Of a DNA stretch of 64,000 bases, positions 27,605-45,293 are shown piece after piece. Location of the stretch: positions 3,744,001 to 3,808,000 of the forward strand of contig OZ241362.1 in NCBI GenBank assembly GCA_965200315.1, written 5' to 3'. Made by a program: the position numbers and the translations under genes. The notes beneath the pieces were generated by a model, which was not told the DNA's origin, ran no database searches, and was given only the letters and a program-made list of their open reading frames with translations. Origin of the DNA: Candidatus Latescibacterota bacterium. Lineage in GTDB: Bacteria; Latescibacterota; UBA2968; UBA8231. Within the stretch, counting starts at the first letter, position 1. Each line of letters begins with the position of its first letter.

Positions 27605-27641
27605 CTTGGAGAACATCTTTAATTCCGTGGAGAACCAAGCT

Positions 27642-27854: not shown

Positions 27855-27907
27855 CAAATCGATCTGCGTCGTATCCAGTTAAACCTATCGCACGCGGGTA
27901 AGAAAAC

Positions 27908-28798: not shown

Positions 28799-30920
28799 GC
28801 TCTTTCTTCTCTCCGAAAGTCTGAAACAGGCTAAAGTTAAATCTCAACCTTGGCACCGGCACTTAAAAGGTCTTCCGAGTGGGAAAGCATTCTACGTCGA
28901 ACTCGACCGTCAAGGACATGTTGCCAAAGTTTCACCTATTATCGACCCGCAAATTCGAGCAGAATTGCGGAAATACGAAAAAGCTGCTGGTTACTCATTT
29001 CCATCATTCAACGTGCCGCCGTTGCTACAGTTCGTAAACGATGAGGAAAAGGAACGCGCAGCCATATTAAAAAAAAGGCTTGGATCGAAGAAGCCGCCAG
29101 AGGCAACGGATCGTGACGAAGAACTCAAATATCTGCTCTCAGTGAGCACATCGGGCTGGGATCAGCCTAACAAGGGTGTGCGTGGCAAAGACGAAATGGA
29201 CAAAGTGAATGATTGTCTATCTTCAGTAGCTCAAAATCTGGCTACGATGATGGGTGATTGCACAGATGAATCACAATCGTTTTTTGAATTGCTGCGCCGA
29301 GCCCAACTAACAAAAGGGCACACCTTTCATAAACAGTTGGAAGAGAGAGCGGTGCAAGGGATAAAGTCCGAACCACCCGAAGCTACTGAATGGATGGATA
29401 TTTTGTTCTTTCATTCGGGGAAGACACCAAAGAAGATCGCGATCGTCTTAGAACTCGTTGATCAATCGCAATTTGAGTATCCGGCGAACCATCCTGAGGT
29501 CCAAGCTTGGGTAAACAAGCACCTCCTGAGAACGGAAACCGTTGGGGAAGCAAAGCAGAAGAACGCGGACACACCGGATGCCTTTGCGATGAAAGGCGGC
29601 GGTACGAATGACAGCTTTCCAGAAGTCAAAATCCCGAAGCTGGGAAAGGTCAAGCTGCGCGCGATGTCTAAAGAACAGCCGTGTCAGCGGCGGTATGGTT
29701 CGGCCGACGCCCAATCGTTCCGAGTCTCGCAGTCAGTACGTCAAACCATGAAGAACGCTCTGGAGTGGATCACAGAGGACGAACGACGCGGAAAAACATG
29801 GTGCGACGTATCTTCGCTAGGCGGCACGTCTGCAATATTGATTGCCTATCCCTCCGAACTGCCTCCAGAAGCACCAGAGCTCGCGGGGTTGTTCGGTGGT
29901 GAAAGAAACCAACCTGACCCTGATGGTTCACGCTTCGAGGTCTGTGCGAGTCGTGTTACTGAGACTCTTAAGGGACAAACAGCGTCGTCACAAAATGCTG
30001 ACGTGCGCGTTTTTGTTCTGACCAAGCCCGATGGCTTTCGGACCAAGGTGCTGCACAGCAGTCGCTATACTGTTCAACACTTGCTCGACAGCGCTGACGA
30101 ATGGCAAGAGCTTTGTCGCAACTCGCCACCAGTAATGATTCGTCAATTTGGTCCAAAGAAAGGTGACAAACCCGTTTGGCAGCGTCCTCGCACGCCCTAC
30201 CCGGCTGAGGTGGTGTGGTGCCTAAACACGGTTTGGCAGCAAATGGGAACGCATCCCAAGACTACTTTCGATTTCCAGATTTCGGATGGCCTGTCTTTAC
30301 TACTGTCAGACGGTCCGGTGTTGCAAACGGTTACGAGGAGGGCAGTTCGGGCTATCACCAGTAATTCGTTATCGCTGCTGCTAGCGATCGGCCAAGCTGG
30401 CCATCAGGAAAAGGTTCACTCGATGAGTAAGGTTTATGGCAAACAAGCCTTGTTGCTTCCCCAGATTCTCGGATTGCTACTTGGAAAACTCGACTATAAG
30501 AAAGGAATTTATATGAAAAATGCACCTTATCTGATTGGTCGTCTCCTGAGTTTGGCCGACCAGTTACACATGCAGTATTGCCGTGAAGTACGCAAGGGCC
30601 AAGTGCCACCTCAATTAGTAGGTAATGCCCTCATGACAAGTGCGATGGAAACACCCGAAAAGGCACTCGCCTTATTTTGGCAGCGCATCAAGCCCTACTA
30701 CGCTTGGGCACAAACTGTCCAAGGTGGCGAGGAAGTACGTCTCACCAAGTACTTCCTCGGCGAGATAGGGCGCATCTGCGAATCCCTTTCCGAGCCGGAG
30801 CTACCAAGCCGATGCTCGGATACCGATAAGGTCGCTATGCTGCTTGGGTACCTCGCCCGTTCTGAAAAGGAAAAATCCGACGATTCGTCGAAAACTTCAA
30901 ACGAAGGAGAGCAGGAATGA
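28788..30920 (+). CDS. cas8c: Divergent type I-C large subunit Cas8c
   Basis: Lies between cas5 and cas7. C-terminal YLIGRLL...MLLGY helical bundle. Confidence 0.8.
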   Translation: MINELFLLSESLKQAKVKSQPWHRHLKGLPSGKAFYVELDRQGHVAKVSPIIDPQIRAELRKYEKAAGYSFPSFNVPPLLQFVNDEEKERAAILKKRLGSKKPPEATDRDEELKYLLSVSTSGWDQPNKGVRGKDEMDKVNDCLSSVAQNLATMMGDCTDESQSFFELLRRAQLTKGHTFHKQLEERAVQGIKSEPPEATEWMDILFFHSGKTPKKIAIVLELVDQSQFEYPANHPEVQAWVNKHLLRTETVGEAKQKNADTPDAFAMKGGGTNDSFPEVKIPKLGKVKLRAMSKEQPCQRRYGSADAQSFRVSQSVRQTMKNALEWITEDERRGKTWCDVSSLGGTSAILIAYPSELPPEAPELAGLFGGERNQPDPDGSRFEVCASRVTETLKGQTASSQNADVRVFVLTKPDGFRTKVLHSSRYTVQHLLDSADEWQELCRNSPPVMIRQFGPKKGDKPVWQRPRTPYPAEVVWCLNTVWQQMGTHPKTTFDFQISDGLSLLLSDGPVLQTVTRRAVRAITSNSLSLLLAIGQAGHQEKVHSMSKVYGKQALLLPQILGLLLGKLDYKKGIYMKNAPYLIGRLLSLADQLHMQYCREVRKGQVPPQLVGNALMTSAMETPEKALALFWQRIKPYYAWAQTVQGGEEVRLTKYFLGEIGRICESLSEPELPSRCSDTDKVAMLLGYLARSEKEKSDDSSKTSNEGEQE
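30513..30920 (+). CDS. cas11: Cas11c small subunit from an internal in-frame start in cas8c
   Basis: AAAGGAA followed by an AT-rich spacer and in-frame ATG 30513, just before the YLIGRLL motif; 135 aa. Confidence 0.7.
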   Translation: MKNAPYLIGRLLSLADQLHMQYCREVRKGQVPPQLVGNALMTSAMETPEKALALFWQRIKPYYAWAQTVQGGEEVRLTKYFLGEIGRICESLSEPELPSRCSDTDKVAMLLGYLARSEKEKSDDSSKTSNEGEQE

Positions 30921-31774
30921 CAGCTACTATTGCCAACGGCGTGAAACGATTCACGGGACTTCTGGTCATCGAAGTCATCAACTCCAATCCCAACGGTGAC
31001 CCAGACCGCGAGAGCGACCCACGGCAGCGCCCTGATGAGCGCGGAGAAATTTCTCCTGTTTCGTTCAAACGCAAAGTGCGCGATTTGATCGAATCGAAGG
31101 ATGGGGCTGTCTGGCAAGAAATGCGGACGGAAATGGACCTGAGCGACGAGCGATTTATGATCCTCGAGTCGCGTGGACGAGATCGCAAGCAGATTGATCA
31201 GGAATTAAAAAATGGATCGTTTCAAGGGAAATACTGGGACGGTCGGGTATTCGGAAACACCTTCTTGGAAGAAGGAGCCGCTGATACGATTAAGACAGGC
31301 GTAGCCCAGTTTGGTCTTGGGCTAAGCGTGGCCCCGATCGAAATCAGTCGCCATACCAACACAAACAAAGCCGGGGTGCAAGAAGGCAAAGATCGTGGTA
31401 TGGCCCCGATGGGCTATCGCTTTGTGCCACATGGAGTCTATTGCATGCCATTCTTTATAAATCCCTCTATGGCTCATAAATCGGGTTGTACGCAACAAGA
31501 TATCAACTTGTTGTTCAAAGTTATACCATACGCCTACGCACATACTCGGTCTCACGCCCGACCACTTGTCGATCTACGTCATGCTTGGGTGGTCGAGCAT
31601 AAATCAGTGCTGGGGTCGTGCTCCGATTTCGAGATTATCGAGGCATTGACACCAAGCAAGGATGGTGATCCCAACTCACCCTCAAACGCATGGTCCGATT
31701 ACACTGTGCCGACGCAGTTATCGGACGCATTGGTTGCTCGTGTCGCGAAAGTTCGGGATTTGGTGGCAGAATGA
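30917..31774 (+). CDS. cas7: Type I-C Cas7 (Csd2)
   Basis: NSNPNGDPD, SFKRKVRD, DGRVFG and GVAQFG motifs. Confidence 0.93.
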   Translation: MTATIANGVKRFTGLLVIEVINSNPNGDPDRESDPRQRPDERGEISPVSFKRKVRDLIESKDGAVWQEMRTEMDLSDERFMILESRGRDRKQIDQELKNGSFQGKYWDGRVFGNTFLEEGAADTIKTGVAQFGLGLSVAPIEISRHTNTNKAGVQEGKDRGMAPMGYRFVPHGVYCMPFFINPSMAHKSGCTQQDINLLFKVIPYAYAHTRSHARPLVDLRHAWVVEHKSVLGSCSDFEIIEALTPSKDGDPNSPSNAWSDYTVPTQLSDALVARVAKVRDLVAE

Positions 31775-33993
31775 TGTTGCTTGCGCACAGTCCGCAACCA
31801 GAGAACGAGATTCCCGCTCAACCATATGCCGAACACATTGAGAACGTCATCGTGTCAGCAGTTCGGCATGCCAATGATCTGACTGCTACCGCTACTGATA
31901 GTCAATTGTTCAAGTTCGCTGTTCAGTTGGCAGCCGAATTTCACGATCTCGGCAAACTTGACCCGGAGAACCAAGCTGTCCTTTCAGTCGGTGGCAGTGG
32001 ACATCTGCCGGTGAATCACGTCGATGCGGGTGTCGCACATCTGTTAAAGCCCTCTTCTCAACCGGCCGCACAACTGGCTGCAATTCTCGTCTTCTCGCAC
32101 CACCGTGGCCTGCCGGCTATCGCCGAACACCGAACTCTAAAGTCCGGATCGCCGTTCCGCGATCTGGAGCCGGATGAATCTGGACGCAAAACGAAAGACC
32201 ACACGGATAGACACCTAGAAGAATACCTGCGGTTACACCTCTCAACCGTCGCTCGCGCGGTACAATCAACGTGCTCGAACGAGCAACGTCAGAGCGACAT
32301 GTCTGTATTGCTTCGTTTGGCGTTGTCCTGCCTCGTTGATGCCGATCATTTTGATACAGCGCGGAATTATGGACAGGCTTTTTTTTCAAGTCCGAAACTT
32401 GAGCCAGCCGTGCGGCTTGAACTTCTAGATCGATATGTCGCTGGGTTGGCAGAGAACAAAAAAGACGAGCGGACACGGCTTAGGCAGGACGTTTATCGCG
32501 ATTGCCGCAATGCCGATCCGTCAAGTGAATCAGTGTTAGCCTGCGATTCTCCCGTTGGGTCTGGGAAGACAACGGCAATTATGGCACACCTGCTGAACGT
32601 AGCGGCTGAGCGTAAACTACGACGAGTCTTTGTCGTCTTGCCTTACACCAATATCATTGACCAATCGGTACAAACTTATCGTAAGGCACTTGTCAAAGCG
32701 GACGAAGACCCAGAAGGCGTCGTCGCAGCTCACCATCATCGAGCGGAATTCGACAGTCTCGCGGCTCGACATCTGACTTACTCGTGGAACAGCCCCATAG
32801 TTATTACGACTGCGGTCCAGTTCTTTGAAACTCTCGCTGCCTGTCGAACTGGGGCACTGCGAAAGCTCCATCAAGTCGCTGGCTCCGCGATCTTTATCGA
32901 TGAGGCCCACGCCGCGTTGCCAGCACACTTGTGGCCAATCGCATGGAAGTGGCTCCAAGAACTGAAGACCAATTGGGGCTGTTACTTCGTTATGGGGTCG
33001 GGATCGTTGAGTCGCTTCTGGGAACTGCCTGAGTTCGTCGATTCACCCCCGAAGGTGCCTAATCTAGTGAACGTGCGGGACCTTGAGTCAACGCGCGTCA
33101 CCTATCAATCTCATTCGGAGCCCATGGGTCTGGCGACGCTGGAATCATGGCTGCTCCAATTGCCGGGTCCGCGGCTGCTCATTGTGAACACCGTGCAATC
33201 GGCGGCTGTCATCGCACGGCATCTTGCCTATTGGAAGAGCCGAGACAACTGGCAATCGGATCATCCTCAAGTCGAGCACCTTTCAACTGCACTCACCCCG
33301 ACTGACCGGGCGAGTACTCTAAATCGAGTCATTAAACGTCTCACAAACAAAGATGATCGAGATTGGACACTCGTGGCAACCTCCTGCGTTGAGGCTGGCG
33401 TTGATTTTTCATTTCGGACGGGCATCCGCGAACGCGCTTGCTTGAACAGCCTCTTGCAAATAGCTGGCCGGGTGAACCGTGGAAACGAGTACGAGTCTGC
33501 CGACGTTTGGGACATTCAATTGGTCCATGACTCATGGCTTCGGCCACACCCAACGTTTGAGCATTCATCCGTCGTATTGGGAGAGCTGTTCAACGAAAGG
33601 CGAGTTGATGTGAGTTCCTGCACCGAGGCTCTACGACGTGAGATTCGTCGCTCGCGACCGAAGCGACTGAAGGATGAGTTAGTCAAGGCCGAATGCGCAC
33701 TGAATTTTCCGAAGGTTGCTGAATTATTTCGCGTCATCGACTCGCCGACACTGACAGCCGTGGTTAATGAGACCCTAAAAGAAAAGATCAAATCAGGCCA
33801 ACATTTTCCAAGCCAAGAGCTCCAGAATGGAAGCGTACAGATATACGGATCACGCGCCAGTGAGTGGGCACTACGCGAGTTTGAGCACAGGCCAGGGCTA
33901 TTCGCGTGGGAATTAGATTACGATCCCTTCTTAGGATTCATGGAGGGCGTACTTCCACTCGTAGATGGCGGCGCAAAGGGGTACATAGTATGA
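31771..33993 (+). CDS. cas3: Cas3 HD-nuclease/helicase
   Basis: FHDLGK, LVDAD, PVGSGKT, DEAH, EAGVD and QIAGRVNR motifs. Confidence 0.95.
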   Translation: MMLLAHSPQPENEIPAQPYAEHIENVIVSAVRHANDLTATATDSQLFKFAVQLAAEFHDLGKLDPENQAVLSVGGSGHLPVNHVDAGVAHLLKPSSQPAAQLAAILVFSHHRGLPAIAEHRTLKSGSPFRDLEPDESGRKTKDHTDRHLEEYLRLHLSTVARAVQSTCSNEQRQSDMSVLLRLALSCLVDADHFDTARNYGQAFFSSPKLEPAVRLELLDRYVAGLAENKKDERTRLRQDVYRDCRNADPSSESVLACDSPVGSGKTTAIMAHLLNVAAERKLRRVFVVLPYTNIIDQSVQTYRKALVKADEDPEGVVAAHHHRAEFDSLAARHLTYSWNSPIVITTAVQFFETLAACRTGALRKLHQVAGSAIFIDEAHAALPAHLWPIAWKWLQELKTNWGCYFVMGSGSLSRFWELPEFVDSPPKVPNLVNVRDLESTRVTYQSHSEPMGLATLESWLLQLPGPRLLIVNTVQSAAVIARHLAYWKSRDNWQSDHPQVEHLSTALTPTDRASTLNRVIKRLTNKDDRDWTLVATSCVEAGVDFSFRTGIRERACLNSLLQIAGRVNRGNEYESADVWDIQLVHDSWLRPHPTFEHSSVVLGELFNERRVDVSSCTEALRREIRRSRPKRLKDELVKAECALNFPKVAELFRVIDSPTLTAVVNETLKEKIKSGQHFPSQELQNGSVQIYGSRASEWALREFEHRPGLFAWELDYDPFLGFMEGVLPLVDGGAKGYIV

Positions 33994-34012
33994 ACAGATA
34001 TCAGCCTGCGTT

Positions 34013-34633
34013 ATGAATCTGCCCGACCCCATGCCCCTCTCGCTTCTCAACGACTTTCTCTATTGCCAACGCCGGGCGGTGCTAAAGGCGATTGAAGGAT
34101 GGCGCGGGACCAACGAGCACACCGTGATCGGCGATGGTGTCCACGAGCAAGCGGACGTCTCCGGCTACGAAACCATCAAGGGCGTGACTTTGCTGCGTAC
34201 TCTGCCCGTCTGGTCGGAACGGCTCCGGCTCAGCGGCAAGTGCGACATCGTCGAGCGCCATTCCGATGGATCGTTGGTCCCGGTCGAATACAAAAAGGGC
34301 CGACGCCGCAAGTTCGACAACGACGACGCCCAGCTTTGCGCACAAGCGTTGTGCCTCGAAGAAATGTTCGGGCAGGACATTCCCCAGGGTGCCATCTTCC
34401 ACGCCAAGAGCAAGTGCCGCCGAGAGGTGGAATTTACCGAGGATTTGCGCCGCCTCACCGAACAGGCCATTGAAGCCATGCACCGGCTAATTAAAGAGGA
34501 AACGGTCCCAAACGCCGTGCATAAACCCCAGTGTTCTGAGTGTTCGCTTTTTGACCATTGCCTTCCCGAGATTACTAGCGTTCCGCCCGTGCTGGCGCGG
34601 GCCTATCGGGCCGTGTTCGATATCACCGACTAG
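34013..34633 (+). CDS. cas4: Cas4 exonuclease
   Basis: YCQRR, GKCDIVE, PVEYKKG, QLCAQALCLEEM and CxxCS...C motifs. Confidence 0.96.
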   Translation: MNLPDPMPLSLLNDFLYCQRRAVLKAIEGWRGTNEHTVIGDGVHEQADVSGYETIKGVTLLRTLPVWSERLRLSGKCDIVERHSDGSLVPVEYKKGRRRKFDNDDAQLCAQALCLEEMFGQDIPQGAIFHAKSKCRREVEFTEDLRRLTEQAIEAMHRLIKEETVPNAVHKPQCSECSLFDHCLPEITSVPPVLARAYRAVFDITD

Positions 34634-34643
34634 AGATTTCTAG

Positions 34644-34680
34644 GCTTTCTTCTTGCTTCGGCACGGGACCGGACTGAAAA
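34644..34680 (+). repeat. Solitary degenerate CRISPR repeat ending on the cas1 ATG
   Basis: GCTTTCTTCTTGCTTCGGCACGGGACCGGACTGAAAA, 37 nt. Keeps the TTCG-loop hairpin and matches the repeat 3' end at 13/16 positions. Confidence 0.7.
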
Positions 34681-35741
34681 TGGCCATTACTCAAAATACC
34701 CTCTACTTGACGACACCCGGCACCGTAGTGCTCAGGGATCACTTGACGCTGCGGGTCGAGATCGAAAAGCAAACTCGCTTGACCGTGCCGATTCACCACT
34801 TGGAAAGCGTCTGTGTGTTTGGGCAGGTCGTGGTTACGCCGCCGGCTATGGCCTTGTGCTGGGACCATCAGGTGGCAGTCCATTACCATACGGAGAGCGG
34901 CTACTTGCTGGCGCAAGTCTTGGGAAGCGGCGACACCCGCTACTTGCTGCGCCGTGCTCAGTATGCGACGGCGGACAGCCCACAGGAGGCATCGCGCATT
35001 GCCCGGCAGTTTGTCGCTGGAAAGCTGCAAAACGCACGTTCCAATCTCTTGCGTTCTGCCCGGGAAGCCGATGACGATGCCGACCAAGGAAAACTGGCGG
35101 ATACCGCAGCCGAACTGGCCCGGCTGATCCGCCGGCTCGGCGATGCTCCGCCCATTGCTCCAAGTTGCGAGCTCCGGGATGCGCTCGACCCAATCAGGGG
35201 CTTAGAGGGCTTGGGCACCAAAGCGTATTTCTCAGCGTTCCTACACATGCTCAAACAACAGCGAGAAGACTTCAGATTTGTAACCCGCACCCGGCGTCCG
35301 CCCCGGGATCGAATGAACTGCCTGCTTTCCTTCGTCTACGCCTTGGTTCGCCACGACTGCTTGGCCGCGTTGACGACCGCTGGGCTGGACCCTTATGTCG
35401 GCTGGCTTCATGCAACGCGGGCGGGAAGGCCGGCTTGTGCCTTGGACCTAATGGAAGAGTTTCGCCCCTGTTTGGCAGAACGGCTGGCATTGACTTTGAT
35501 CAACCGTCGGCAGATCGAGCCCAAGCATTTTCGCGAACGCGAGGGCGGTGCTGTGGAGTTTACTGAACGGGGGCGGAAAGAGGTCATTCAGGCTTGGCAA
35601 CGGCGCAAGCAAACAGAAGTAAAGCACTCCTTGTTCAAGCAGAATATCCGCCTAGGGCAAGTGTTCAGTATTCAAGCCAAATTGTTGGCCCGAAAGCTCC
35701 GCGGCGATATTCCCGACTATATCTCGTTTATCTCAAAATAA
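34680..35741 (+). CDS. cas1: Type I-C Cas1
   Basis: NTLYLTT, RGLEG, RRPPRDRMNCLLSFVY and LDLMEEFRP motifs. Confidence 0.97.
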   Translation: MAITQNTLYLTTPGTVVLRDHLTLRVEIEKQTRLTVPIHHLESVCVFGQVVVTPPAMALCWDHQVAVHYHTESGYLLAQVLGSGDTRYLLRRAQYATADSPQEASRIARQFVAGKLQNARSNLLRSAREADDDADQGKLADTAAELARLIRRLGDAPPIAPSCELRDALDPIRGLEGLGTKAYFSAFLHMLKQQREDFRFVTRTRRPPRDRMNCLLSFVYALVRHDCLAALTTAGLDPYVGWLHATRAGRPACALDLMEEFRPCLAERLALTLINRRQIEPKHFREREGGAVEFTERGRKEVIQAWQRRKQTEVKHSLFKQNIRLGQVFSIQAKLLARKLRGDIPDYISFISK

Positions 35742-35745
35742 CGCA

Positions 35746-35770
35746 GTCTTCTGCCGGTAGGGATTGAAAT
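35746..35770 (+). repeat. Collapsed CRISPR-repeat-like unit abutting the cas2 ATG
   Basis: GTCTTCTGCCGGTAGGGATTGAAAT has a repeat-like 5' GTCT and 3' GGATTGAAA. Confidence 0.65.
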
Positions 35771-36061
35771 ATGTTTGTTCTAGTCGCATACGACGTTTCC
35801 ACAACTGACCGGGCTGGGCAAAAGCGACTGCGCCGAGTGGCAAGAGCCTGTAAAGATTACGGCGTTCGAGCGCAAAAATCGCTTTTTGAATGTCAGGTGA
35901 GAAAGACGGAATGGGCTGCCCTCAGGAATCGTCTGCTAAAGGAAATCGATCCTAAACAGGATTCCCTCAGAATATATCACCTAGACGAAAACTCCAAAGA
36001 CAAGACGGAGCATCACGGGCTCAACGAACCTGTGGACCTCAATGAGCCACTCGTCTTATAG
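35771..36061 (+). CDS. cas2: Cas2
   Basis: LVAYDV, RLRRVA..C..YG.RAQKSLFEC and DSLRIY motifs. Confidence 0.97.
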   Translation: MFVLVAYDVSTTDRAGQKRLRRVARACKDYGVRAQKSLFECQVRKTEWAALRNRLLKEIDPKQDSLRIYHLDENSKDKTEHHGLNEPVDLNEPLVL

Positions 36062-36241
36062 TGTACGCGAATGCAAAGTAACGGCGTTTTGCGCTTACTT
36101 TCGCACAGTTGGCAACTCTATGACTAACAACAAGTTACAGCGAGGCATCAGCCTGCGCTTTGTCAGCAGGATGCGGATGAAAGGAGGTTCGCGCATCCGC
36201 CTGTGTAATCTTTTGGTATTCCGCTGGTTACAATAACACGC
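36062..36241 (+). promoter_or_regulatory. CRISPR leader
   Basis: Non-coding 180 nt between cas2 and the first repeat, with I-C-type GCGAA...TTCGC motifs and an IHF-like TAACAACAAGTTA. Confidence 0.75.
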
Positions 36242-38213
36242 GTCTCCCCTCGTTTCGGCGGGGGGAGCGGATTGAAACGAATACAAGCTCTCGCGGGCGC
36301 GTGTTCGGCGCCAGTCTCCCCTCGTTTCGGCGGGGGGAGCGGATTGAAACGAAAGCGGCTTCCCTACTTCGTACGTGATCCCCATGTCTCCCCTCGTTTC
36401 GGCGGGGGGAGCGGATTGAAACCAACGTCCACAACGGCCGTATGGCCCCTTACAGCGTCTCCCCTCGTTTCGGCGGGGGGAGCGGATTGAAACTTAGGGA
36501 TGTACCGGGTCCGTAGTGGGTACTACATGTCTCCCCTCGTTTCGGCGGGGGGAGCGGATTGAAACACATAGCGCGCAACTATACGGATGAGAACAAGCGG
36601 TCTCCCCTCGTTTCGGCGGGGGGAGCGGATTGAAACTACGTGGACGCCCGTCGGGTCATGGACCGACTTGAGTCTCCCCTCGTTTCGGCGGGGGGAGCGG
36701 ATTGAAACAGCCACAACCCGAGAGGATAGGAGATTGATATGCCGTCTCCCCTCGTTTCGGCGGGGGGAGCGGATTGAAACTACATCGAGCAGGGGATTAA
36801 AGAGCACCAACCTAGTCTCCCCTCGTTTCGGCGGGGGGAGCGGATTGAAACAGACAGCACTTGCCCGATTTAAAACGGCTAACGCGTCTCCCCTCGTTTC
36901 GGCGGGGGGAGCGGATTGAAACAAGTACGGCTACCACCCATAGGAAGGAGATTGAAGTCTCCCCTCGTTTCGGCGGGGGGAGCGGATTGAAACACCTCGG
37001 CGGTAGCCGCCCAGCGCATAGCCGAGGCGTCTCCCCTCGTTTCGGCGGGGGGAGCGGATTGAAACGAGGATGCTAACTACATCATCCGTTGCCCGATCAC
37101 GTCTCCCCTCGTTTCGGCGGGGGGAGCGGATTGAAACATACGTCAGCCCCGACGCCTTCAACTCCTTGAAGGTCTCCCCTCGTTTCGGCGGGGGGAGCGG
37201 ATTGAAACTATCAGCGGTCGATTGTCCACCTGCTGGATATCGGTCTCCCCTCGTTTCGGCGGGGGGAGCGGATTGAAACTCCCTAGTATCCAACTAGCTG
37301 TACTCTCGTGCCCATGTCTCCCCTCGTTTCGGCGGGGGGAGCGGATTGAAACCTATGTCCTACTACTCCCTACCTCCCATTATTAGGTCTCCCCTCGTTT
37401 CGGCGGGGGGAGCGGATTGAAACGTAGCGTGGTGGGCCTCATCGACGACGATCAGCCGTCTCCCCTCGTTTCGGCGGGGGGAGCGGATTGAAACCCTAGC
37501 TCCCATTCATTAGGCCGCGCCGACAGCGCGTCTCCCCTCGTTTCGGCGGGGGGAGCGGATTGAAACCGCACACGCGCATACATGCACGTGCACACGCACA
37601 GTCTCCCCTCGTTTCGGCGGGGGGAGCGGATTGAAACCGTTGGAGCAGGCCGAGCGTGCGGCGTATGCCGCGTCTCCCCTCGTTTCGGCGGGGGGAGCGG
37701 ATTGAAACGCATACGAGCGGATGGCTAGCAACCGAGACCCTAAGTCTCCCCTCGTTTCGGCGGGGGGAGCGGATTGAAACGCATACGAGCGGATGGCTAG
37801 CAACCGAGACCCTAAGTCTCCCCTCGTTTCGGCGGGGGGAGCGGATTGAAACGCATACGCCGCGGCCGTTGACGCTATGTCGACCATGTCTCCCCTCGTT
37901 TCGGCGGGGGGAGCGGATTGAAACCATGCGCTCGGCGATCTCCAAAGCCTCGGCGCAATGGTCTCCCCTCGTTTCGGCGGGGGGAGCGGATTGAAACTAT
38001 GGCGGACCTTGCCGGCGGCGATGTGCGCGCGGGTCTCCCCTCGTTTCGGCGGGGGGAGCGGATTGAAACATCGTGTCGCGGAAGCTCTCGCCTACGCCCT
38101 GCCTGTCTCCCCTCGTTTCGGCGGGGGGAGCGGATTGAAACTATCAGGGGGTGCTTTCGGATGCGGCCCAAGCACTGGTCTCCCCTCGTTTCGGAGGAGG
38201 CAGTGTACGAAAC
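36242..38213 (+). CRISPR. Type I-C CRISPR array: 27 identical 37-nt repeats, 1 degenerate terminal repeat, 27 spacers of 34-36 nt
   Basis: Repeat GTCTCCCCTCGTTTCGGCGGGGGGAGCGGATTGAAAC (10-bp stem, TTCG loop, 11-nt 3' tail), counted manually. The terminal repeat 38178-38213 is degenerate. Confidence 0.99.
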
Positions 38214-38218
38214 GAAAC

Positions 38219-38551
38219 CTAAGTGAGGTTTAGCCAATTTTGCAAAGATAAAATCAGTGTCGGTTGATCTTTCTGCGTGAGGTGCCCCACTTTCTTGAGG
38301 ATCAAGTTCTGATGGATAGTATAGATCCCTCGTTTAACAGCCGACGCGACATTGAGCCCTGATTGTTCCCAATTCTCAAGCACAAACTCACTTGGCAGCA
38401 GGTTCGTTATTTTACTGGTGAGAGGAACGATAAAAACATCTTGAGAAATATGCGGCGCACTTACAATAATAGCCGGACGTACTTTGAATGCACTCAAATC
38501 AGAAAAGGGATAACGAACAAGCACAACATCATTCGTCGAGTAATCGGGCAT
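38219..38551 (-). CDS. PemK/MazF family toxin
   Basis: DVVLVRYPFSD...KVRPAIIVS, IVPLTSK and GLNVAS motifs; AT-rich. Confidence 0.9.
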   Translation of the reverse strand: MPDYSTNDVVLVRYPFSDLSAFKVRPAIIVSAPHISQDVFIVPLTSKITNLLPSEFVLENWEQSGLNVASAVKRGIYTIHQNLILKKVGHLTQKDQPTLILSLQNWLNLT

Positions 38552-38729
38552 ACACATCGCCCTCTTTATTGTCCCAAATCTGTTTCAGAGTTTCCTCGCT
38601 AGCTTCCTGCCAGAAAGTATCATCGTCGGGCAACATAGTTATCAGCACCTTTTTTCCCTCGGGTAACTCAATGTGCTCTAAAGTTTCGATTTTGCCGTTT
38701 TTAACAATGGCCAAAGCAGTATTGAGCAT
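38529..38729 (-). CDS. Cognate antitoxin (AF2212/DUF104-like)
   Basis: AIVKNGKIE.LE.IELPEG.KVLIT motif and acidic WDN..GDVY tail; overlaps the toxin start. Confidence 0.75.
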   Translation of the reverse strand: MLNTALAIVKNGKIETLEHIELPEGKKVLITMLPDDDTFWQEASEETLKQIWDNKEGDVYARLLDE

Positions 38730-38773
38730 AGCAGCTCCTTCTCTGTGTCCAAACTACTGTTAGTATTAAAATG

Positions 38774-38871
38774 GTTTCCTGTCGTTTGGTAGTCAAAGAG
38801 GGGCCCTCCAAGGTCTCCCCTCGTTTTCTCGCCTAAAGGCGAGGTAAAGCGACAAGGAATCGGATTGAAAC
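38774..38871 (+). repeat. Orphan structured CRISPR-repeat derivative
   Basis: Contains the exact repeat 5' 14-mer (38813-38826) and the exact 3' 11-mer CGGATTGAAAC (38861-38871), plus extra hairpins. Confidence 0.8.
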
Positions 38872-39767
38872 TATACCTTCCGATCCTCTTCCTGTTGCAA
38901 CGCGTACAAAGACGTATAGCCCCCCGACCAATCCGGCGGGATGAGACAAGGCCGCGGGTCGTGATAGGCCCAACGCGCCGCTTTGCCCCGCACAATAGCC
39001 CCCGAATACTGCGGGCTGTTCAAAGGGTTGACCGTATAGGGAAAAGCGTCGGCTGCCGAGTAGATGTTGAGCAACAAGGGACGCCCCTTGGGCGATAAAT
39101 TCTTCTTAGACCCATGCACGGTGCGGCAATTGTGGATGGTGATGGAGCCAGCCGGCCCGGCCATGTACTCGACGCGGTCGAGATCAACTTGGGGCATATC
39201 CTGCCCGGCGATACAGCCGACCCATTGCCCAGCGGCATTGTACTGATCGAACAAAGGCCCGTTGTGGCTGCCGGCGATCCCGGCCAAAGGCCCTTGATCG
39301 TCGCCGACGTCATAGAGGTACGTGCCGATGGTCAAGGGGCTATAATTGGTATGCGGCCAATACGTTATATCCTGGTGCCACTTGACCTCTTCGCCGCCTT
39401 CGGACCACTTGAAATTCAATTTGGAATGGTGGTACTTGACGTCCGGGCCGACCAGATCGGCGGCCACGTCAGCCACAACCGACTGAGCGGCAAATTCCCA
39501 ATAGACCGGATGTTGGTCCACCGGGCTGGTAAGGCGTCGCAGGCGGGGCTTGTCGGCCGTGTGGTCGGGCTCCAGATCGAAGACCGCGTCCGATTGGCTC
39601 AGGCCGCGACTGCGCTCGACCATTTCGTCGGTGACGGCCAACAAGCGATCAATCCACTCCGGCCCGATGAGATTTTCGACCAACAGAAAGCCCTTGTCGA
39701 AGTAGGATTGCCGCTGCTTTTGGGTGAGGATCTTGGGAGGGTGCTCCAGAATTTGTTCGGGCGTCAT
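38871..39767 (-). CDS. Phytanoyl-CoA dioxygenase family protein
   Basis: KLNFK, WHQD..YWPHTN and HGS motifs. Confidence 0.92.
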   Translation of the reverse strand: MTPEQILEHPPKILTQKQRQSYFDKGFLLVENLIGPEWIDRLLAVTDEMVERSRGLSQSDAVFDLEPDHTADKPRLRRLTSPVDQHPVYWEFAAQSVVADVAADLVGPDVKYHHSKLNFKWSEGGEEVKWHQDITYWPHTNYSPLTIGTYLYDVGDDQGPLAGIAGSHNGPLFDQYNAAGQWVGCIAGQDMPQVDLDRVEYMAGPAGSITIHNCRTVHGSKKNLSPKGRPLLLNIYSAADAFPYTVNPLNSPQYSGAIVRGKAARWAYHDPRPCLIPPDWSGGYTSLYALQQEEDRKV

Positions 39768-39971
39768 GGTCCTGTCTCCTCTGCGTTGTAACAACTCAAT
39801 GGGTTCGGCGAGCACGTAATGCTAGCGAATTCGCACACACGGCTCAAGCAAAGAATCCTACCCAATACGCAATTCGGTAGGGCCTAATGGCGGTTTCGCT
39901 GCGGAAGCGCTAGTTTTTAATTGGAACTTCTGAATACGTCATTTAAGTAGGGTCACCCGTTGGATTGAAAC

Positions 39972-41267
39972 ATGAACTCAGAACACCACACCGTCATCGT
40001 CGTCGGCGGCGGCCCCGCGGGCCTGCCTTTAGCGGTCGTCTTGGGCGGCTGGCATCCTTTCTTCCGCAACAGCCGCATGTTTGCCACACGCTACGCGCCC
40101 CTAGCCGGATACTTGCAGCAGTTCGACCGCACCCTGTTGGGGCTAGACATGCAGTATCTCGTGCAGAGCGGCATCAAGCCCGTCGATCTGTTTCGCACCT
40201 TGCACCACCCGCGCCAGCTCTTTGAGGAACTGGACCAAGTCGCCATGGACTTTCGGCGCGGCGAGCCGCTTGATGTGCTGCTCATCAGCCGCGAGCCGGT
40301 CGGCGGCTTGTGGAACCGAGCGCCGCAAAACCTGCTGACCTTGTCGCCGGGCCAGTGGATGGAGTTTGCCTTTTATCCGCTGGCGCAACACGCCGCAGAA
40401 GTCGGGCGCACCTTAGACGTCAACGCCCTAATCCTCAAGACCGATCTGATTGACTACTATCACCGTGTGCCTGAGCGCTTTGGGGTGGCAGAGCGCATTC
40501 GCACCTTTGAGGAGGTCGAGCGGATTGAACCGCACGAAAGGGGCTTTCAGCTTGCCAGTCGGCACGTGCAAACGGGCGTTGAGCAGCACTACACTTGTAA
40601 GTACCTCGTCTTAGCAACCGGCCAGCGCGGTCGGTTGCGCTCCCTCGGCGTGGAGGGCGAGGACTGGCCTTTTGTCACCGCGCACTACGACAAGCCCGCA
40701 GACTTCCCCGGCGAGCGGGTGTTGGTCGTCGGCGGCGGGCGCTCGGGCGATTGGGCCGCGACCGAATTGCACGACGCCGGCAAGCAAGTGTACTACGCCA
40801 TGCGCCAAGGGCCAGCGGTCCATTGGCAGCTCATCAACGACAGCCGCCACGGGCTGCCCTATTACCAGCGCATCGCCGCAATCCTCGAAAGCCGCTCGCC
40901 CCGGCTCAAAACCTTGTATCACACCCATCTGACGCAGATTGCAGAGGACGGACGGGTCGGGCTGAAAAGTCCCGAGGGAAGCCAAGTGGTGGAGGTCGAT
41001 CACGTAATCAAGGAAATCGGCGGCACGGCCGACTATTCGATCTTGCAGGGCTTGGCACCGCTGACCCTGACGCCCATGCGCGACAACTACCGATTCCAAG
41101 TCGAGCAAGCCCAGACCCACGCCCACAGCTACGAGTCGATTGACGTTCCCAATCTCTATCTCGGCGGCTATCTCGCGGCCGGGATCGGACTCGTCGTCAT
41201 CGCCATGCACGGGACGACTTATGCGATTGCCGGGGATATTCTCCAAAAAGAGGGGCGGTGCTTGTAA
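39972..41267 (+). CDS. FAD/NAD(P)-dependent oxidoreductase, OSGIN-like
   Basis: Two Rossmann motifs (VGGGPAG, VGGGRSG), plus GGLW...LTLSPGQWM and ATG motifs. Confidence 0.85.
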   Translation: MNSEHHTVIVVGGGPAGLPLAVVLGGWHPFFRNSRMFATRYAPLAGYLQQFDRTLLGLDMQYLVQSGIKPVDLFRTLHHPRQLFEELDQVAMDFRRGEPLDVLLISREPVGGLWNRAPQNLLTLSPGQWMEFAFYPLAQHAAEVGRTLDVNALILKTDLIDYYHRVPERFGVAERIRTFEEVERIEPHERGFQLASRHVQTGVEQHYTCKYLVLATGQRGRLRSLGVEGEDWPFVTAHYDKPADFPGERVLVVGGGRSGDWAATELHDAGKQVYYAMRQGPAVHWQLINDSRHGLPYYQRIAAILESRSPRLKTLYHTHLTQIAEDGRVGLKSPEGSQVVEVDHVIKEIGGTADYSILQGLAPLTLTPMRDNYRFQVEQAQTHAHSYESIDVPNLYLGGYLAAGIGLVVIAMHGTTYAIAGDILQKEGRCL

Positions 41268-41397
41268 CTTTTCCCCGCCGCTGTCACTGCCCGAAGCGGG
41301 TGGTGCAGGTGCGCGAACCAGACCAGCGAGTGCAGTTTTAAGGGCGCACCGAAATTGTTGACGCGCAAAAATTGGGAGATGCAAAGGTTCATAGCTT

Positions 41398-42546
41398 TCA
41401 CTTTGCGGATGTTTGATAGGGCAATGGTTTTGGATCGAGCCATTCTACAATTCGATCTTTTATCGCCCAAGCAAAGAAGAAATTCCCGCGCGGCGTGTGA
41501 TGCCCGATATAATACGGTGCCAAAAACGTCTGTACATCCCCTCGATATGTCGCGTATTCTTCCCGAAAAGCATCGCGCAAATCGATCATTGGTACGTCCT
41601 TTGTCGCCAACCAATCCAAAAACGTCTGATCAAAAAGCGGCTCGCCCTTCAGGGCATTCGCTACATTGTGCGAACCAAATGACAAAATTACCAGCAGCTT
41701 TTTTCCATTGGCCTTTGTAAACGCCTCGGCCTTTTCAATCACAAACCGCGTTGCAAACAGAGCCGCTTCGGTATGCAGGCTATAAACCTCGGCATCTGAT
41801 CCCGCATTCTCCAGCTCTCCCCCCATACTTTGCGCCATTGCCGACGCATCTTCCACACTGCCCTTGCGCGCCATGACCGCGTGCAAAATCGGATCGTCGC
41901 CAAAAGTCTCCCACACCCAATCCGCATCGCATAACCGATAAAGTTCTTCGGGAGTCTTACACAAATTCTCGCGCTCTTCCACAGTTCCGCTTTCCAGATT
42001 CACGCACAAATGCGGCAGCGTAAACCGCCCCTGTCGTCCCATGCGAATGGACCGCCACGCATCCAAATTGCGAAAGTGATCGTCGTCCCACACGTTCAAA
42101 ATTACGTATTCGGCCGGATATTCCCTCTCCACAATTAACATTCGCCGATACGCCTGATACACACTGTGCCCGCCAATGCCGTAATTGCGAACGGGCTCCA
42201 GCAAATGCGCGGCCAAATACTCCTGCCATGTCTCCCCATTGCTAACCTGATCGCAATGCGTAAAGCTATTTCCATACGTATGGATGCGACACGGACGATC
42301 CGCGTAATTGACCGCTTGCCGCGCACCGTCTTTCTCGTACGCGTAAAACCCGCGCGAATCATCTACACCTCCACCGCGAAACCCATCACAAACCACCCAT
42401 CCGATCTCGGGATCAAACGCCGACTGTGCATTATTACACATAATCCTCGCCAACCCTGCCGGCACATCGGTCTTCTCAGGCGTCACAAAATGATCCACCA
42501 TCTGGCGAGTTGGCATAATCGATTCCAAATATTCGCGTCTTGGCAT
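41398..42546 (-). CDS. Hypothetical SGNH/GDSL-hydrolase-like protein
   Basis: GNSFTH, NYGIGG and GHHTPRGN blocks; lower GC than its flanks. Confidence 0.7.
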   Translation of the reverse strand: MPRREYLESIMPTRQMVDHFVTPEKTDVPAGLARIMCNNAQSAFDPEIGWVVCDGFRGGGVDDSRGFYAYEKDGARQAVNYADRPCRIHTYGNSFTHCDQVSNGETWQEYLAAHLLEPVRNYGIGGHSVYQAYRRMLIVEREYPAEYVILNVWDDDHFRNLDAWRSIRMGRQGRFTLPHLCVNLESGTVEERENLCKTPEELYRLCDADWVWETFGDDPILHAVMARKGSVEDASAMAQSMGGELENAGSDAEVYSLHTEAALFATRFVIEKAEAFTKANGKKLLVILSFGSHNVANALKGEPLFDQTFLDWLATKDVPMIDLRDAFREEYATYRGDVQTFLAPYYIGHHTPRGNFFFAWAIKDRIVEWLDPKPLPYQTSAK

Positions 42547-42728
42547 CGCGAGCTCCTTTTCCCTATTCCGGTTGCGGTTTGGTTCCCGCCAAAACCGCTG
42601 CCGGAGTCGTGCCAACAACGGTGTCATATTATTGTCTAGCGACTTGAGAGAGGACCCAAATGGTGCCTAATTTTTCCCATCCATTTGCTTTATTGCTGCC
42701 CGGAACTCGAAAGGAGATCCTCACTTCC

Positions 42729-43277
42729 ATGAATAATCTCAGGTATTCTCTCGCAGTCTTCTGCACACTTGCCCTGTTGCCCGCCCGCGGCTCCGCCGAC
42801 GAAGAGAGTGTACGGTCTGCCGTGATGGATCATTATCGAGCTTTTGCCGCCAAAAATCACGAAATACTGGGGCGCAGTTTTGCGCCGGGCTATACCATTT
42901 TCTCCTCATCTGGCGGTCTGCTCCGCGAAGGGTTCGATGGGGACCGCATGAAGTCCGGGTTCAAGGCCGGACTCACGTTCAACCTCAAACCCCGGCATAT
43001 CGAGGTGCAACTCTTCGAGAATACCGCTGTGGTGACAGGGTATCTGGATGCCAGAATCTCTAAGAAAAAAGAACGCAGTCGAATGCATACACTTCGTCTC
43101 TCCAGCGTGTGGGTCAAGCAGGCAGGAGGATGGCACCTTGCCCACGAGCACTTGTCGAGGTTGGTGCTGCGTTCCACATCTCCACCTGCTCGGCAGTCAG
43201 AAACAGTGGTTCAGGAGGATAAGCAAGGTATTGACTTTGAGACTTGGCTACTGACGTTTGCTGATATTCTGTTCTGA
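42729..43277 (+). CDS. Secreted NTF2/SnoaL-like (DUF4440) protein
   Basis: Signal peptide; NTAVVTG and SSVWVKQAGGWHLAHEH motifs. Confidence 0.8.
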   Translation: MNNLRYSLAVFCTLALLPARGSADEESVRSAVMDHYRAFAAKNHEILGRSFAPGYTIFSSSGGLLREGFDGDRMKSGFKAGLTFNLKPRHIEVQLFENTAVVTGYLDARISKKKERSRMHTLRLSSVWVKQAGGWHLAHEHLSRLVLRSTSPPARQSETVVQEDKQGIDFETWLLTFADILF

Positions 43278-43304
43278 TGCAGCACCCAATGGGCTACGTG
43301 CCAG

Positions 43305-43557
43305 TCAATATGAGAACGGCATCCGCAGCGGCGCCGTCCTTGCCGCCCTGTCGTACCACCCCTGAGCTGCGTAGTCGCTCATGTGGAGGTAGCACTTGAT
43401 GTTGACCTCCACCGTCCCTTCCGAAAACGTCAACAACCGGCTCATCGAAACATTCCTGTGGCCGTGCTCGAAATGGCCGCCACATTGACGAATTGGCACG
43501 AGCCAGATCCGTACCCACGTGTGCATCCCCACCCGCCCACAGCTTGAACGTTTTCAT
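43305..43557 (-). pseudogene. Internally deleted metallophosphoesterase-like gene
   Basis: N-terminus MKTFKLWAGGDAHVGTDL (DxH motif) is joined out of frame to a C-terminal stretch SRLLTFSEG...CYLH...QGWY. Confidence 0.6.
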
Positions 43558-43559
43558 CC

Positions 43560-45293
43560 TCACACCTGCGGCCGCAAGTTCAGCAGCACCAACAGCCAAG
43601 TGCGGCTCCAGTAAGCGCTGTTGATATAGGGGTTTTCCGCGCTGGGCCAGTTGGTCCAATAGGTCTCGTTGTGCGGGATGCGGTGCGGCCATTGGACGAG
43701 GGGGATGGAGGGCAACTCGGCCAGCCAAAGGTCCATGGCTTGGCGGTAGAGCTCGTCCATCTGTGGGGCGTCGGTTGGGGTCTGGCCCATCTGATCGAGC
43801 AGCGCGTCGTAGGCCGGGTTTTGCCAGCGCCAAGGCATGTCGGCTGGTTCGCCGGTGGGCTGGACAAAGCGGCTGTGGTACTGGCGCAGCACAAAATAGG
43901 GGTCGCGCATGGAGCTGAAGTTGCCGATTAGGTACGCCCGGGCCGTACCCTGGCGCAGGCGCGTGGTAAAGTCCGAGGTCATGCGGAAGGAGGCGTCAAT
44001 GCCGGCCTTTTTGAGCTGGGCGATGAGCACCGGCGTCAAATCCTGAAAGTGAGAGAAAATGTCGATGACCATGCGTAGAGGCTGCCCGTCCTTTTCCCAG
44101 AAGACCCCGTTGTGTTCGTAGCCTTTGCGGGCGAGAATCTCCGCGCTCTTTTCCAAATCAAAGACGCCCACTTGGTGCTTGGCGACCAAGTCATCGGCGA
44201 GGGTAAAATACCGACGCATCTGCGGGAGATCGGGCAAGGGCAGCAGGGTCCATGCACCAGAGTTTTGCCAGCCTATGGCTACGAGCTGTTCGCGGTTGAT
44301 GGCATAGTTGACCGCACGGCGCATCTCCGGGTCGGACCAAGGGGGCTCCAGCCCATTGAACCCCAGCGATATGGGCCACCAAGTGATGTAGCTGTATGGA
44401 GGCTCGCGGCCGGTCCAAGTCGTGATGTTGCGATTGCGCTCCAAGAGAGAGACTATGTTGGCCGGACGCAGCTCCAAGCAGGTGTCGATGTTGTTGGCGA
44501 TCAGGTTTTGTACGCGCTTGTGTTCCTCCATATAGGTCAGGTAGATCAGCCGCTCGACCTCGGGTAGATCCTGAAAGCCGAGCTTCTCAGCCCACCAGCC
44601 CTCGCGCAGATCCCAGATTCGTTGGGCCGGCTCCGAGCGCACAATCTGGTAGGGGCCGGTCAGTACCGGCCAGCCTTTTTGCAAGTCGAAGTTGGAAAAA
44701 GTCAGCGGGTCTTGGCCTTCCCAGATGTGCTTGGGCACAATGGGGACTCCTTGGTCGCCGCTGTGGACGAAGTAGCTGAAAAGGAAGCGCGGGTTGGACT
44801 TCTTGAGCGCGACGCGCGCCGTCAAGCTGTCGAGGGCGACCGCCTCTTGGACCCAAGTCGCCATATCCGTCGAGTACACGAGCTGGGGGGCGTGCTCCAC
44901 CAGCATGTTGATGGTAAAGGCAAAGTCGTGCGCCGACCAAGGATGCCCGTCGCTCCACTCGACGCCCGGACGAATTTTGACCACGAGTTCGGTGTAATCC
45001 TCGTTGAAATGGTGGCTCTCGGCGATCCAAGGTATGAGCTCGGAATTTTCCTCGTAGGCGTTGAAGAAGTAGAGCGGCTCATAGAGAAAGTTATATCCTA
45101 TGCGCGAAATGCTGCCCGGGATGAAGGGGTTGAAGGAGTTGTAATCTTGGATCTGGCCAGAGCAGGTATTGGCCTCGGCGCAATCCATGATCAAGGTCCG
45201 GTTGCGCGGCACCTTTTTGAGAGCATATCCGCCCTCCCCGCCACTACAGGCGATAAAGGGTACGGTCGCTAAAAGCAGGATATAAATAGGCAT
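43560..45293 (-). CDS. ABC transporter substrate-binding lipoprotein (family 5, OppA/DppA-like)
   Basis: Lipobox FIAC; LYEPL, WSDG.P.SA.D..FT, TGPY and RRAVNYAINR motifs. Confidence 0.92.
   Translation of the reverse strand: MPIYILLLATVPFIACSGGEGGYALKKVPRNRTLIMDCAEANTCSGQIQDYNSFNPFIPGSISRIGYNFLYEPLYFFNAYEENSELIPWIAESHHFNEDYTELVVKIRPGVEWSDGHPWSAHDFAFTINMLVEHAPQLVYSTDMATWVQEAVALDSLTARVALKKSNPRFLFSYFVHSGDQGVPIVPKHIWEGQDPLTFSNFDLQKGWPVLTGPYQIVRSEPAQRIWDLREGWWAEKLGFQDLPEVERLIYLTYMEEHKRVQNLIANNIDTCLELRPANIVSLLERNRNITTWTGREPPYSYITWWPISLGFNGLEPPWSDPEMRRAVNYAINREQLVAIGWQNSGAWTLLPLPDLPQMRRYFTLADDLVAKHQVGVFDLEKSAEILARKGYEHNGVFWEKDGQPLRMVIDIFSHFQDLTPVLIAQLKKAGIDASFRMTSDFTTRLRQGTARAYLIGNFSSMRDPYFVLRQYHSRFVQPTGEPADMPWRWQNPAYDALLDQMGQTPTDAPQMDELYRQAMDLWLAELPSIPLVQWPHRIPHNETYWTNWPSAENPYINSAYWSRTWLLVLLNLRPQV

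Follow-up and report, generated by a model that had tools for sequence, protein, structure and literature searches.

CRISPR repeat ends at gene boundaries of a type I-C locus in Candidatus Latescibacterota: probable scars of an inserted and decayed island

Solitary repeats and mini-arrays of CRISPR systems (clusters of regularly interspaced short palindromic repeats) have been described as regulators similar to CRISPR RNA (crRNA), in type I-C under the name of 'CRISIS' (bioRxiv 10.1101/2024.12.27.630466 and 10.1101/2023.03.03.530964). We have studied a type I-C locus of a Candidatus Latescibacterota bacterium in which ends of the CRISPR repeat are found exactly at gene boundaries: at the stop codon of a gene for a PhyH-family dioxygenase and at the start codons of a flavoprotein gene, of cas1 and of cas2. 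The locus is found in contig OZ241362.1, positions 3,744,001–3,808,000; this whole stretch of 64,000 nt is called the window. The pattern is probably formed by the scars of several processes in a conserved neighbourhood: insertion of a CRISPR-cas island, its decay, nesting of a toxin-antitoxin module, insertion of a palindromic element and microhomology deletions. In addition, repeat units would have become gene leaders.

As in the CreA/CreR, crRNA-like RNA (crlRNA) and 'CRISIS' elements, we find single sequences similar to the I-C repeat outside the array, some of them in the cas operon and with a conserved 11-nt tail. They differ from the crlRNA units in three features: they have no partial target flanked by a protospacer adjacent motif (PAM), they are flush with start codons so that the 'spacer' is the gene itself, and many are far from cas, beside housekeeping genes. 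Our locus also resembles ordinary trailer decay and repeat recombination, since degenerate repeats are found at the leader-distal end and the array length varies down to a single repeat at one site. It differs from such decay by the presence of a complete toxin-antitoxin module between the last two repeats and of a palindromic element in the last one.

Defence islands are rich in toxin-antitoxin modules. As in other CRISPR-linked toxin-antitoxin loci, the cas-array block is flanked here by mazEF and vapBC. CreTA modules have RNA toxins repressed by Cascade, whereas mazEF in the window is a predicted protein pair of type II with no sign of Cascade control. The locus resembles integron cassettes, as short structured repeats of one orientation alternate with genes; it differs from them because some of the 'cassettes' are backbone genes, and because the orientation of mazEF and PhyH is opposite to that of the repeats. 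General scans of the proteins in 25700-42627 of the window gave nothing similar to an integrase, no search being aimed at IntI or attC. Synthetic Csy4/Cas6 cleavage sites are used as engineered insulators in 5' untranslated regions: here a CRISPR repeat is also found directly upstream of coding sequence, but a natural counterpart would be a speculative interpretation (see below). In the literature we have found no report of repeats flush with start codons, of repeat leaders which bind ribosomes or of toxin-antitoxin genes in an array; the supplementary tables of the two preprints on solitary units could list such cases.

Solitary repeats are usually interpreted as regulatory guides or phage decoys. 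Here we meet a third setting: recurrent insertions, specific to a lineage, which would become gene leaders and in one case provide a candidate start codon. Sister species give clean states before and after at the same sites. The locus shows base by base the insertion, movement and erosion of a CRISPR-cas island with addiction modules in a conserved neighbourhood. It raises the question of how array fragments leave the array, and whether a CRISPR nuclease or Cascade can touch host mRNAs through such leaders.

Repeat ends at the boundaries of the locus

The genome of the window (G000) has 5.36 Mb in a single contig, with 59% G+C. Its relatives, recovered with the flavoprotein gene, are metagenome-assembled genomes of Candidatus Latescibacterota, a few of them labelled Gemmatimonadota or similar. 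Our comparison sets contain 31 genomes, 23 flavoprotein loci at the genus level and 11 genomes at the PhyH stop codon. The elements around the boundaries are the following:

36242-38141, + strand: I-C CRISPR array, 27 identical 37-nt repeats, period 71-73 nt
38178-38194, + strand: truncated last-but-one repeat, equal to the first 17 nt of the repeat
38195-38729, − strand: mazEF module, with a 3' flank (38195-38218), mazF (38219-38557) and a putative antitoxin (38529-38729)
38813-38871, + strand: terminal I-C repeat with a palindromic element in its loop, right end of the island
38871-39767, − strand: PhyH-family dioxygenase gene (Pfam PF05721)
39768-39971: divergent intergenic region ending TGGATTGAAAC
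39918-39971, + strand: replaced flavoprotein leader of 54 nt, from the alignment with six sister loci of the PhyH type
39938-39971, + strand: degenerate repeat-like unit of 34 nt ending TGGATTGAAAC, inside the 54-nt replacement
39972-41267, + strand: flavin-dependent oxidoreductase (flavoprotein) gene (Pfam Pyr_redox_3, Pyr_redox_2), conserved right flank

The initial annotation placed repeat-type GAAAC ends at three consecutive gene boundaries. This is the case for the PhyH stop codon and the flavoprotein ATG; at the mazF stop, GAAAC belongs to the flank of the toxin-antitoxin module and the repeat is limited to 38178-38194. The comparison of relatives, which that annotation proposed, places homology breakpoints at 38872 and 39972, exactly after both GAAAC ends. 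The breakpoints coincide with repeat ends, and the 10-mer GGATTGAAAC is neither common nor randomly placed outside the arrays, so that neither observation speaks against the annotated pattern.

At the PhyH stop the sequence 38861-38871 overlaps the codon by one base, as annotated, and is part of a whole repeat. The first 14 nt of this repeat (38813-38826, GTCTCCCCTCGTTT) had been missed. The element has the exact 14-nt 5' part and the exact 11-nt 3' part of the repeat, with a middle of 34 nt where 12 nt are usual; the element ends with the third base of the PhyH stop codon. In G000 and G006 this codon is TAG, with its last base provided by the repeat end; sister genomes have TAA. The predicted fold has −18.6 kcal/mol (z −2.2); the array repeat forms a 10-bp hairpin with −18.8 kcal/mol (z −2.6). 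G006 has 93% identity with G000 in the mazEF and PhyH region; there the same form, of 60 nt, is found as a repeat inside an array with a spacer on both sides, and a second copy lies between mazEF and PhyH as in G000.

The insert in the loop is a copy of a short hairpin motif, CACGCCTAAAGGCGCGGTGAAGC, of roughly 22 nt. With up to two mismatches it has 42 copies in G007, 17 in G005, 7 in G019, 6 in G023, 5 in G001 and 2 in G000, as compared with 0-2 per genome for the reversed control. The copies which we inspected are found in unrelated intergenic contexts. In G001 and G023, at the sites orthologous to genome position 5233223 (see below), the repeat-derived unit carries the CACGCCTAAAGGCGCGGTGAAGC insert at the same loop position. 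This element is a short palindromic multicopy extragenic repeat, similar in form to repetitive extragenic palindromes (REP) and their hairpin pairs (REPIN). It differs from them in one feature: the Y1 transposase RAYT (REP-associated tyrosine transposase, PF01797) is present in G000, G005 and G008, but absent from G019 and from G007, the genome richest in copies. We do not assign it to REP/REPIN proper on this account.

To the left of the array the following features are found:

25700-26797, − strand: GFO/IDH/MocA oxidoreductase gene (Pfam PF01408, PF22725, PF02894), conserved left flank of the island
26845-27488, − strand: vapBC-like toxin-antitoxin pair (Pfam PF01850, PF22513)
26845-27249, − strand: PIN toxin of this pair
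27246-27488, − strand: FitA-like ribbon-helix-helix antitoxin of this pair
27642-27854, + strand: gene of a small helix-turn-helix (HTH) protein upstream of the cas operon (Pfam HTH_11 and others)
about 27975-28130: remnant of an aspartyl-protease gene, with an intact counterpart in G006 (Pfam)
28151-36061, + strand: type I-C cas operon cas5d-cas8c-cas7-cas3-cas4-cas1-cas2 (Pfam)
36062-36241, + strand: array leader

The Pfam matches of the cas genes are Cas_Cas5d, Cas_Csd1, Cas_Cas7, Cas3-like_C_2/DEAD, Cas_Cas4, Cas_Cas1 and CRISPR_Cas2. This is a type I-C CRISPR-Cas locus: all seven genes are present in the order cas5-8-7-3-4-1-2, the hairpin repeats end in ATTGAAAC and the leader adjoins cas2. 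In seven of the 11 sister genomes the PhyH stop is TAA and the GFO start is found 5-6 nt away. In the remaining ones the neighbour of the PhyH stop is an aspartyl-protease gene (G023), a mazEF remnant (G011) or a repeat (G000, G006). It follows that 26798-38871 has been inserted between genes which are otherwise neighbours. This 12-kb island contains vapBC, the HTH gene, the aspartyl-protease remnant, the cas operon, the array, mazEF and the last repeat; at its left edge 47 nt separate the GFO start from vapC. As PhyH adjoins either GFO or the flavoprotein gene in sister genomes, it is a resident gene and not a captured cassette.

At the left side of mazEF the situation is different. The toxin is a member of Pfam PemK_toxin (PF02452, E 4.2e-08), and the putative antitoxin is an open reading frame (ORF) of 66 aa which overlaps the toxin start by 29 nt and has no family match in Pfam or NCBIfam. 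With a PemK/MazF-fold toxin and a small overlapping gene upstream, the pair is predicted to be a type II toxin-antitoxin system. Homologues with 82-84% DNA identity are found in G025, G037 and G034, which belong to another family, with no ATTGAAAC within about 5 kb. Their homology with the window starts at 38204-38210, and the mazF stop flank reads GAAACGAAAT or AAAGAAAT followed by CTA, the same flank as in the window. Since modules free of CRISPR carry it, GAAAC at the mazF stop is part of the toxin-antitoxin flank and not of a repeat. As judged from these sequences, the boundary is a mazEF flank fused to a repeat cut off after 17 nt.

In G000 and in G006 mazEF is nested between a left repeat and the loop-expanded full repeat. 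The left one is the truncated 17-nt stump in G000 and a different 37-nt variant in G006. In G011 a mazEF remnant of the repeat-mazEF-repeat layout abuts the PhyH stop. The regions upstream of vapBC (27500-27560) and of mazEF (38745-38805) are alike, with the common pattern …AAAATGGTTT.CT..TC.T..GT.GTCAA.GAGG. In G014 and G008 a copy of mazEF occupies the place which vapBC has in the window, before the same small HTH gene.

At the flavoprotein gene, which is 90–93% identical across the 23 loci, the repeat-type end 39961-39971 directly before the ATG was correctly annotated: TGGATTGAAAC is followed by ATG and belongs to a solitary repeat unit. Where G000 has 54 nt, the six sister loci of the PhyH type have 43 other bases ending in cacaagata before the ATG. 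We compared the 130 nt upstream of the ATG in all 23 loci. In six of them PhyH and its intergenic region reach the ATG and no repeat is present. Another four carry an I-C array, with repeat types of 37 and 32 nt, and the distance between the end of the last repeat and the ATG is +1, +1, +10 or +18 nt; in three more a single repeat, intact or degenerate, is found at +16 to +22. A truncated antitoxin is fused directly to the ATG in nine loci; in the last one (L037) the array ends 313 nt upstream.

Several loci with arrays keep the native proximal leader (ending in cacaagata or tagaacga before the ATG) behind the last repeat, which indicates that arrays first ended about 18-22 nt upstream of the flavoprotein ATG. 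These bases are gone in G000, G007 and G019. The antitoxin-ATG junction has AACAT in common between 38632-38636 of the window and GAAAC followed by AT; it would fit a deletion by microhomology which started from a layout similar to that of the window.

Solitary units before start codons

At least eight start codons, among them those of cas1, cas2, sdhA and pdxS, have a solitary I-C unit at a distance of 25 nt or less, which is flush in many cases. Most of these units are absent at the same sites in sister species, and two are insertions of one spacer-plus-repeat unit, of 67 and 71 nt. They are listed below, those outside the window named by gene or genome position:

34644-34679, + strand: cas1 unit, degenerate and repeat-like, flush with the cas1 ATG (34680), in four of four related operons
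35741-35770, + strand: cas2 unit, a 30-nt insertion with a short repeat-like unit ending GGGATTGAAAT, flush with the cas2 ATG, in one of four related operons
pdxS unit: a stretch of 33 nt plus a 35-nt repeat in place of CTC, 16 nt ahead of the ATG and immediately upstream of the native AGGAG; found in 2 of 25 loci (G000, G008)
226222 unit (ORF of 81 aa): exact insertion of 71 nt, equal to one array period (36 + 35 nt), at +0, with gccact before it and the ATG after it; found in 2 of 24 loci
103289 unit: 92 nt in place of 14 nt with the native GAGGGA, flush with the ATG, in 2 of 21 loci
4440433 unit: 44 nt in place of 2 nt, 25 nt before the ATG, in 1 of 20 loci
sdhA unit, G000:C1:2279040-2279150 (L089): a 40-nt leader is replaced by two repeats of the 32-nt type, separated by a 16-nt spacer, flush or at +4, in 7 of 25 loci
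5233223 unit, G000:C1:5233186-5233223 (L093:137-174): replaces cgggaggatgcc, in 17 of 30 loci (12 native, 1 other)

At the cas2 site the other three related operons have aaata directly before the ATG. The sdhA mini-array of G000 is flush with a GTG start codon, and between species the two stem runs of the sdhA units, of C and of G, vary together in length. The 5233223 unit takes the place of the native Shine-Dalgarno region of a conserved gene and is flush with the ATG in eight of the 17 loci which carry it. G000 and four others have lost the ATG together with seven further bases; a TTG inside GGATTGAAAC is in frame and open, and is the candidate start codon in G000.

The units point toward the downstream gene, with the exception of 38813-38871 and 4318662. 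An exact-pattern scan of the 31 genomes gave no flush cases outside arrays beyond these sites and their orthologues. By blastn-short we compared the flavoprotein leader and the spacer-like segments of the inserted units with the whole genome and the loci of the relatives; only self-matches were found.

Within the window GGATTGAAAC has only two exact copies outside the 27-repeat array, at 38862-38871 and 39962-39971; with up to one mismatch there are 32 matches, 3.31 being expected from shuffles. The whole genome has 399 copies, as compared with 1 for the reversed control: 383 are inside three arrays and 16 are single. Four of these 16 directly abut the start codon of an ORF (81-569 aa). The 8-mer ATTGAAAC has 94 copies outside arrays, five of them flush with an ORF start, while permuted 8-mers have a mean of 0.76 and reach five in 3 of 150 cases. 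One of the five, at genome position 4533273, has no repeat-like context. The 15-mer GGAGCGGATTGAAAC is found exactly at five sites outside the I-C array. A search of 33900-40300 with Rfam gave only CRISPR-DR9 on the 27 array repeats, below threshold (21-23 bits, cut-off 45), and no match on any solitary unit.

Two arrays of G000 are very large, C1:129109-147678 and 592812-601234, with 246 and 110 repeats and a period of about 76 nt. Their repeat is of a different type and has only the 3' end GGATTGAAAC in common with the I-C repeat.

Explanations of the boundary pattern

We think that a history of scars probably accounts for the boundaries. GFO, PhyH and the flavoprotein gene would be the conserved backbone of the genus, which type I-C islands would have repeatedly entered and left after decay. 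The right edge of the present island is the exact 3' end of a repeat, with the junction inside the PhyH stop codon. In the decayed trailer of the array mazEF is most likely an addiction module which stabilises the island, as suggested by the general biology of toxin-antitoxin systems; the last repeat would have received the short palindromic element in its loop at a later time. Before the flavoprotein ATG, TGGATTGAAAC may be the remnant of an array which collapsed at that site or a separate insertion of a single unit. Elsewhere spacer-plus-repeat units or mini-arrays would have been copied to non-CRISPR sites just before start codons. At these places the gene leader would consist of the AUUGAAAC tail and the G-rich stem half, which is best supported at 5233223.

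Several observations weigh against this history. In G013, G022 and G001 the island or its remains are found between PhyH and the flavoprotein gene, not to the left of PhyH; as islands are found on both sides of PhyH in the genus, a single insertion cannot explain all the layouts. G008 has three units in common with G000, but neither the sdhA unit nor the same 5233223 allele. The distribution of units thus disagrees between loci, and recombination between species or repeated events must be assumed. Some targets are operon junctions of 12-14 nt, where a flush position is nearly forced, yet it is odd that such small targets have been hit. The G-rich tract is found 11 nt from a flush ATG (15 nt in the +4 variants of sdhA), as compared with 5-8 nt in the native sites inspected. 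The 4318662 unit (G000:C1:4318625-4318662, L091) is antisense to its neighbours. Scars and survivorship alone do not by themselves explain the presence of many flush units oriented with the gene. The conversion of I-C units into gene leaders would be a tendency of this lineage, and we cannot fully explain one-period insertions flush with starts.

At 4318662 the TAG stop of the gene in the opposite strand takes its G from the repeat end, as it does at PhyH. The segment is 94–97% identical in six other genomes, with a patchy distribution, and absent or partial in most. We also considered a tRNA-linked island at this place and discarded it: ARAGORN detects no tRNA.

Repeat-derived leaders could also be working substrates of Cas5c. 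In this case cleavage of the mRNA at the hairpin base would leave a handle of 11 nt before the start, and expression would depend on the nuclease or be insulated by it, or Cascade would load on the handle. Units at 226222, pdxS, sdhA and some alleles of 5233223 keep the hairpin and the 11-nt tail pointing to the gene, and the C-run and G-run of the sdhA stem covary. Cas5c is described to cut solitary units of type I-C at this position (bioRxiv 10.1101/2024.12.27.630466). On the other side, the cas1, cas2 and flavoprotein units of the window fold no better than shuffles (z −0.01 to +1.35), which indicates that they lack the hairpin that Cas5c needs. The proposal of the initial annotation, that an eroded array had left processing sites for Cas5c, therefore does not hold for the units of the window. 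In G007, G009 and G019 the 5233223 unit retains its 3' part, but its hairpin half has been replaced or lost.

RNA was available as assembled contigs from four metatranscriptome runs of one study, which cannot show RNA ends, strand or processing. The contigs cover mazEF, the last repeat, PhyH and the flavoprotein gene. Those of PhyH end at 39799-39805 in three runs, which as contig limits need not be RNA ends. Three runs leave 39800/39805-39937/39940 uncovered. The flavoprotein contigs begin at 39937 and 39940 (two runs), the first bases of the 34-nt unit and not the handle at 39961, and contigs of two runs span 38861: this is a weak hint against processing, given that contigs cannot show ends. 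We consider a general function as Cas5c substrates possible but unlikely; the window's own units are degenerate relics, not active elements for crRNA processing or guidance.

A related explanation is that single array periods (67-71 nt) are mobile and have been copied from arrays to sites at or shortly before start codons, in the orientation of the gene, where intact copies are cut by Cas5c or bound by Cascade, so that sdhA, pdxS, cas1 and cas2 have CRISPR-dependent leaders. If true, these would be natural repeat 'insulators', and the junction chemistry of Cas1-Cas2 would be reshaping genes outside the array. We find this rather improbable.

The layout which the initial annotation read as repeat-gene-repeat-gene stands for mazEF (in G000 and G006) and for the cas1, cas2 and flavoprotein units; it does not hold for PhyH, a backbone gene beside the island. 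Capture of mazEF and PhyH between repeats, by Cas1-Cas2 or by recombination between repeats, would make them similar to integron cassettes or giant spacers. mazEF is found between repeats of the same orientation in two species and is horizontally mobile, as shown by its 82–84% identity in another family. The junctions are exactly at repeat 3' ends, where Cas1-Cas2 acts, and elsewhere the limits of the 67- and 71-nt insertions correspond to one array period. However, PhyH is a resident gene, the repeats which flank mazEF are unlike (the 17-nt stump or the 37-nt variant of G006, against the loop-expanded form) and not duplicates, and its left 'repeat end' is the toxin-antitoxin flank. No duplication of a target site or repeat is seen at any junction, nor is there a pair of empty and filled sites for mazEF within an array in the loci read. 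We find no positive evidence for a capture of gene-sized cassettes, by Cas1 or in the manner of integrons, and judge the whole idea very unlikely.

It is hardly probable that the solitary units are regulatory genes of the crlRNA, CreR or CreA type, which guide Cascade to promoters by partial pairing. Units similar to crlRNA, located in cas operons, are described for type I-C, and the cas1 unit is kept in all four related operons. We searched the whole genome for partial targets of the sequence after 13 units (up to two mismatches in 15 positions, with a PAM TTC, TTT or TTA) and found 0-2 matches, the same as in shuffled controls; for six units no 12-nt seed match was found in 24000-44000 of the window. 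Furthermore, the 'spacer' position is the coding sequence of the downstream gene.

Chance occurrence of short GAAAC-type words at gene ends applies to the 5-nt GAAAC of the mazF flank and to the flush copy at 4533273, but it is practically negligible for the pattern and is refuted at the PhyH stop and the flavoprotein ATG, where breakpoints in relatives coincide with repeat ends; the exact 10- to 15-mers, and also the 14-nt 5' part, greatly exceed expectation.

Other remnants and arrays

In L031 (G002), positions 8845-9281, a decayed cas operon is found about 0.7 kb upstream of the flavoprotein gene, with fragments of cas4 (residues 87-117) and cas1 (residues 9-124) fused to each other. In L022 (G001), at about 9290-9310, the 3' half of a 37-nt-type repeat (GGGGGAGCGGATTAAAAAC) is found at a break in the PhyH-flavoprotein intergenic region. 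In L033:1714-2673, and also in L040, L071, L022, L031 and L041, the space between array and toxin-antitoxin remnant contains an ORF of 319 aa which has tandem GIEQ repeats. In L040 the last repeat is fused at GAAAT into the 5' end of this ORF, a fusion comparable to the antitoxin-ATG junction. Its assignment to an Rpn-type nuclease was rejected: there is no Pfam match, and the NCBIfam score is below threshold (26.8 bits, cut-off 52.1).

Some arrays have a hybrid appearance, with I-C repeats of the 32-nt and 37-nt types side by side: this is the case for L037 around 3250-3360 and L002 (G006:C35) 1270-1640. They look like derivatives of two I-C lineages. In the array of the window two neighbouring spacers at 37709-37815 have the same sequence (GCATACGAGCGG…CCCTAA in both): one spacer-repeat unit has been duplicated in tandem.

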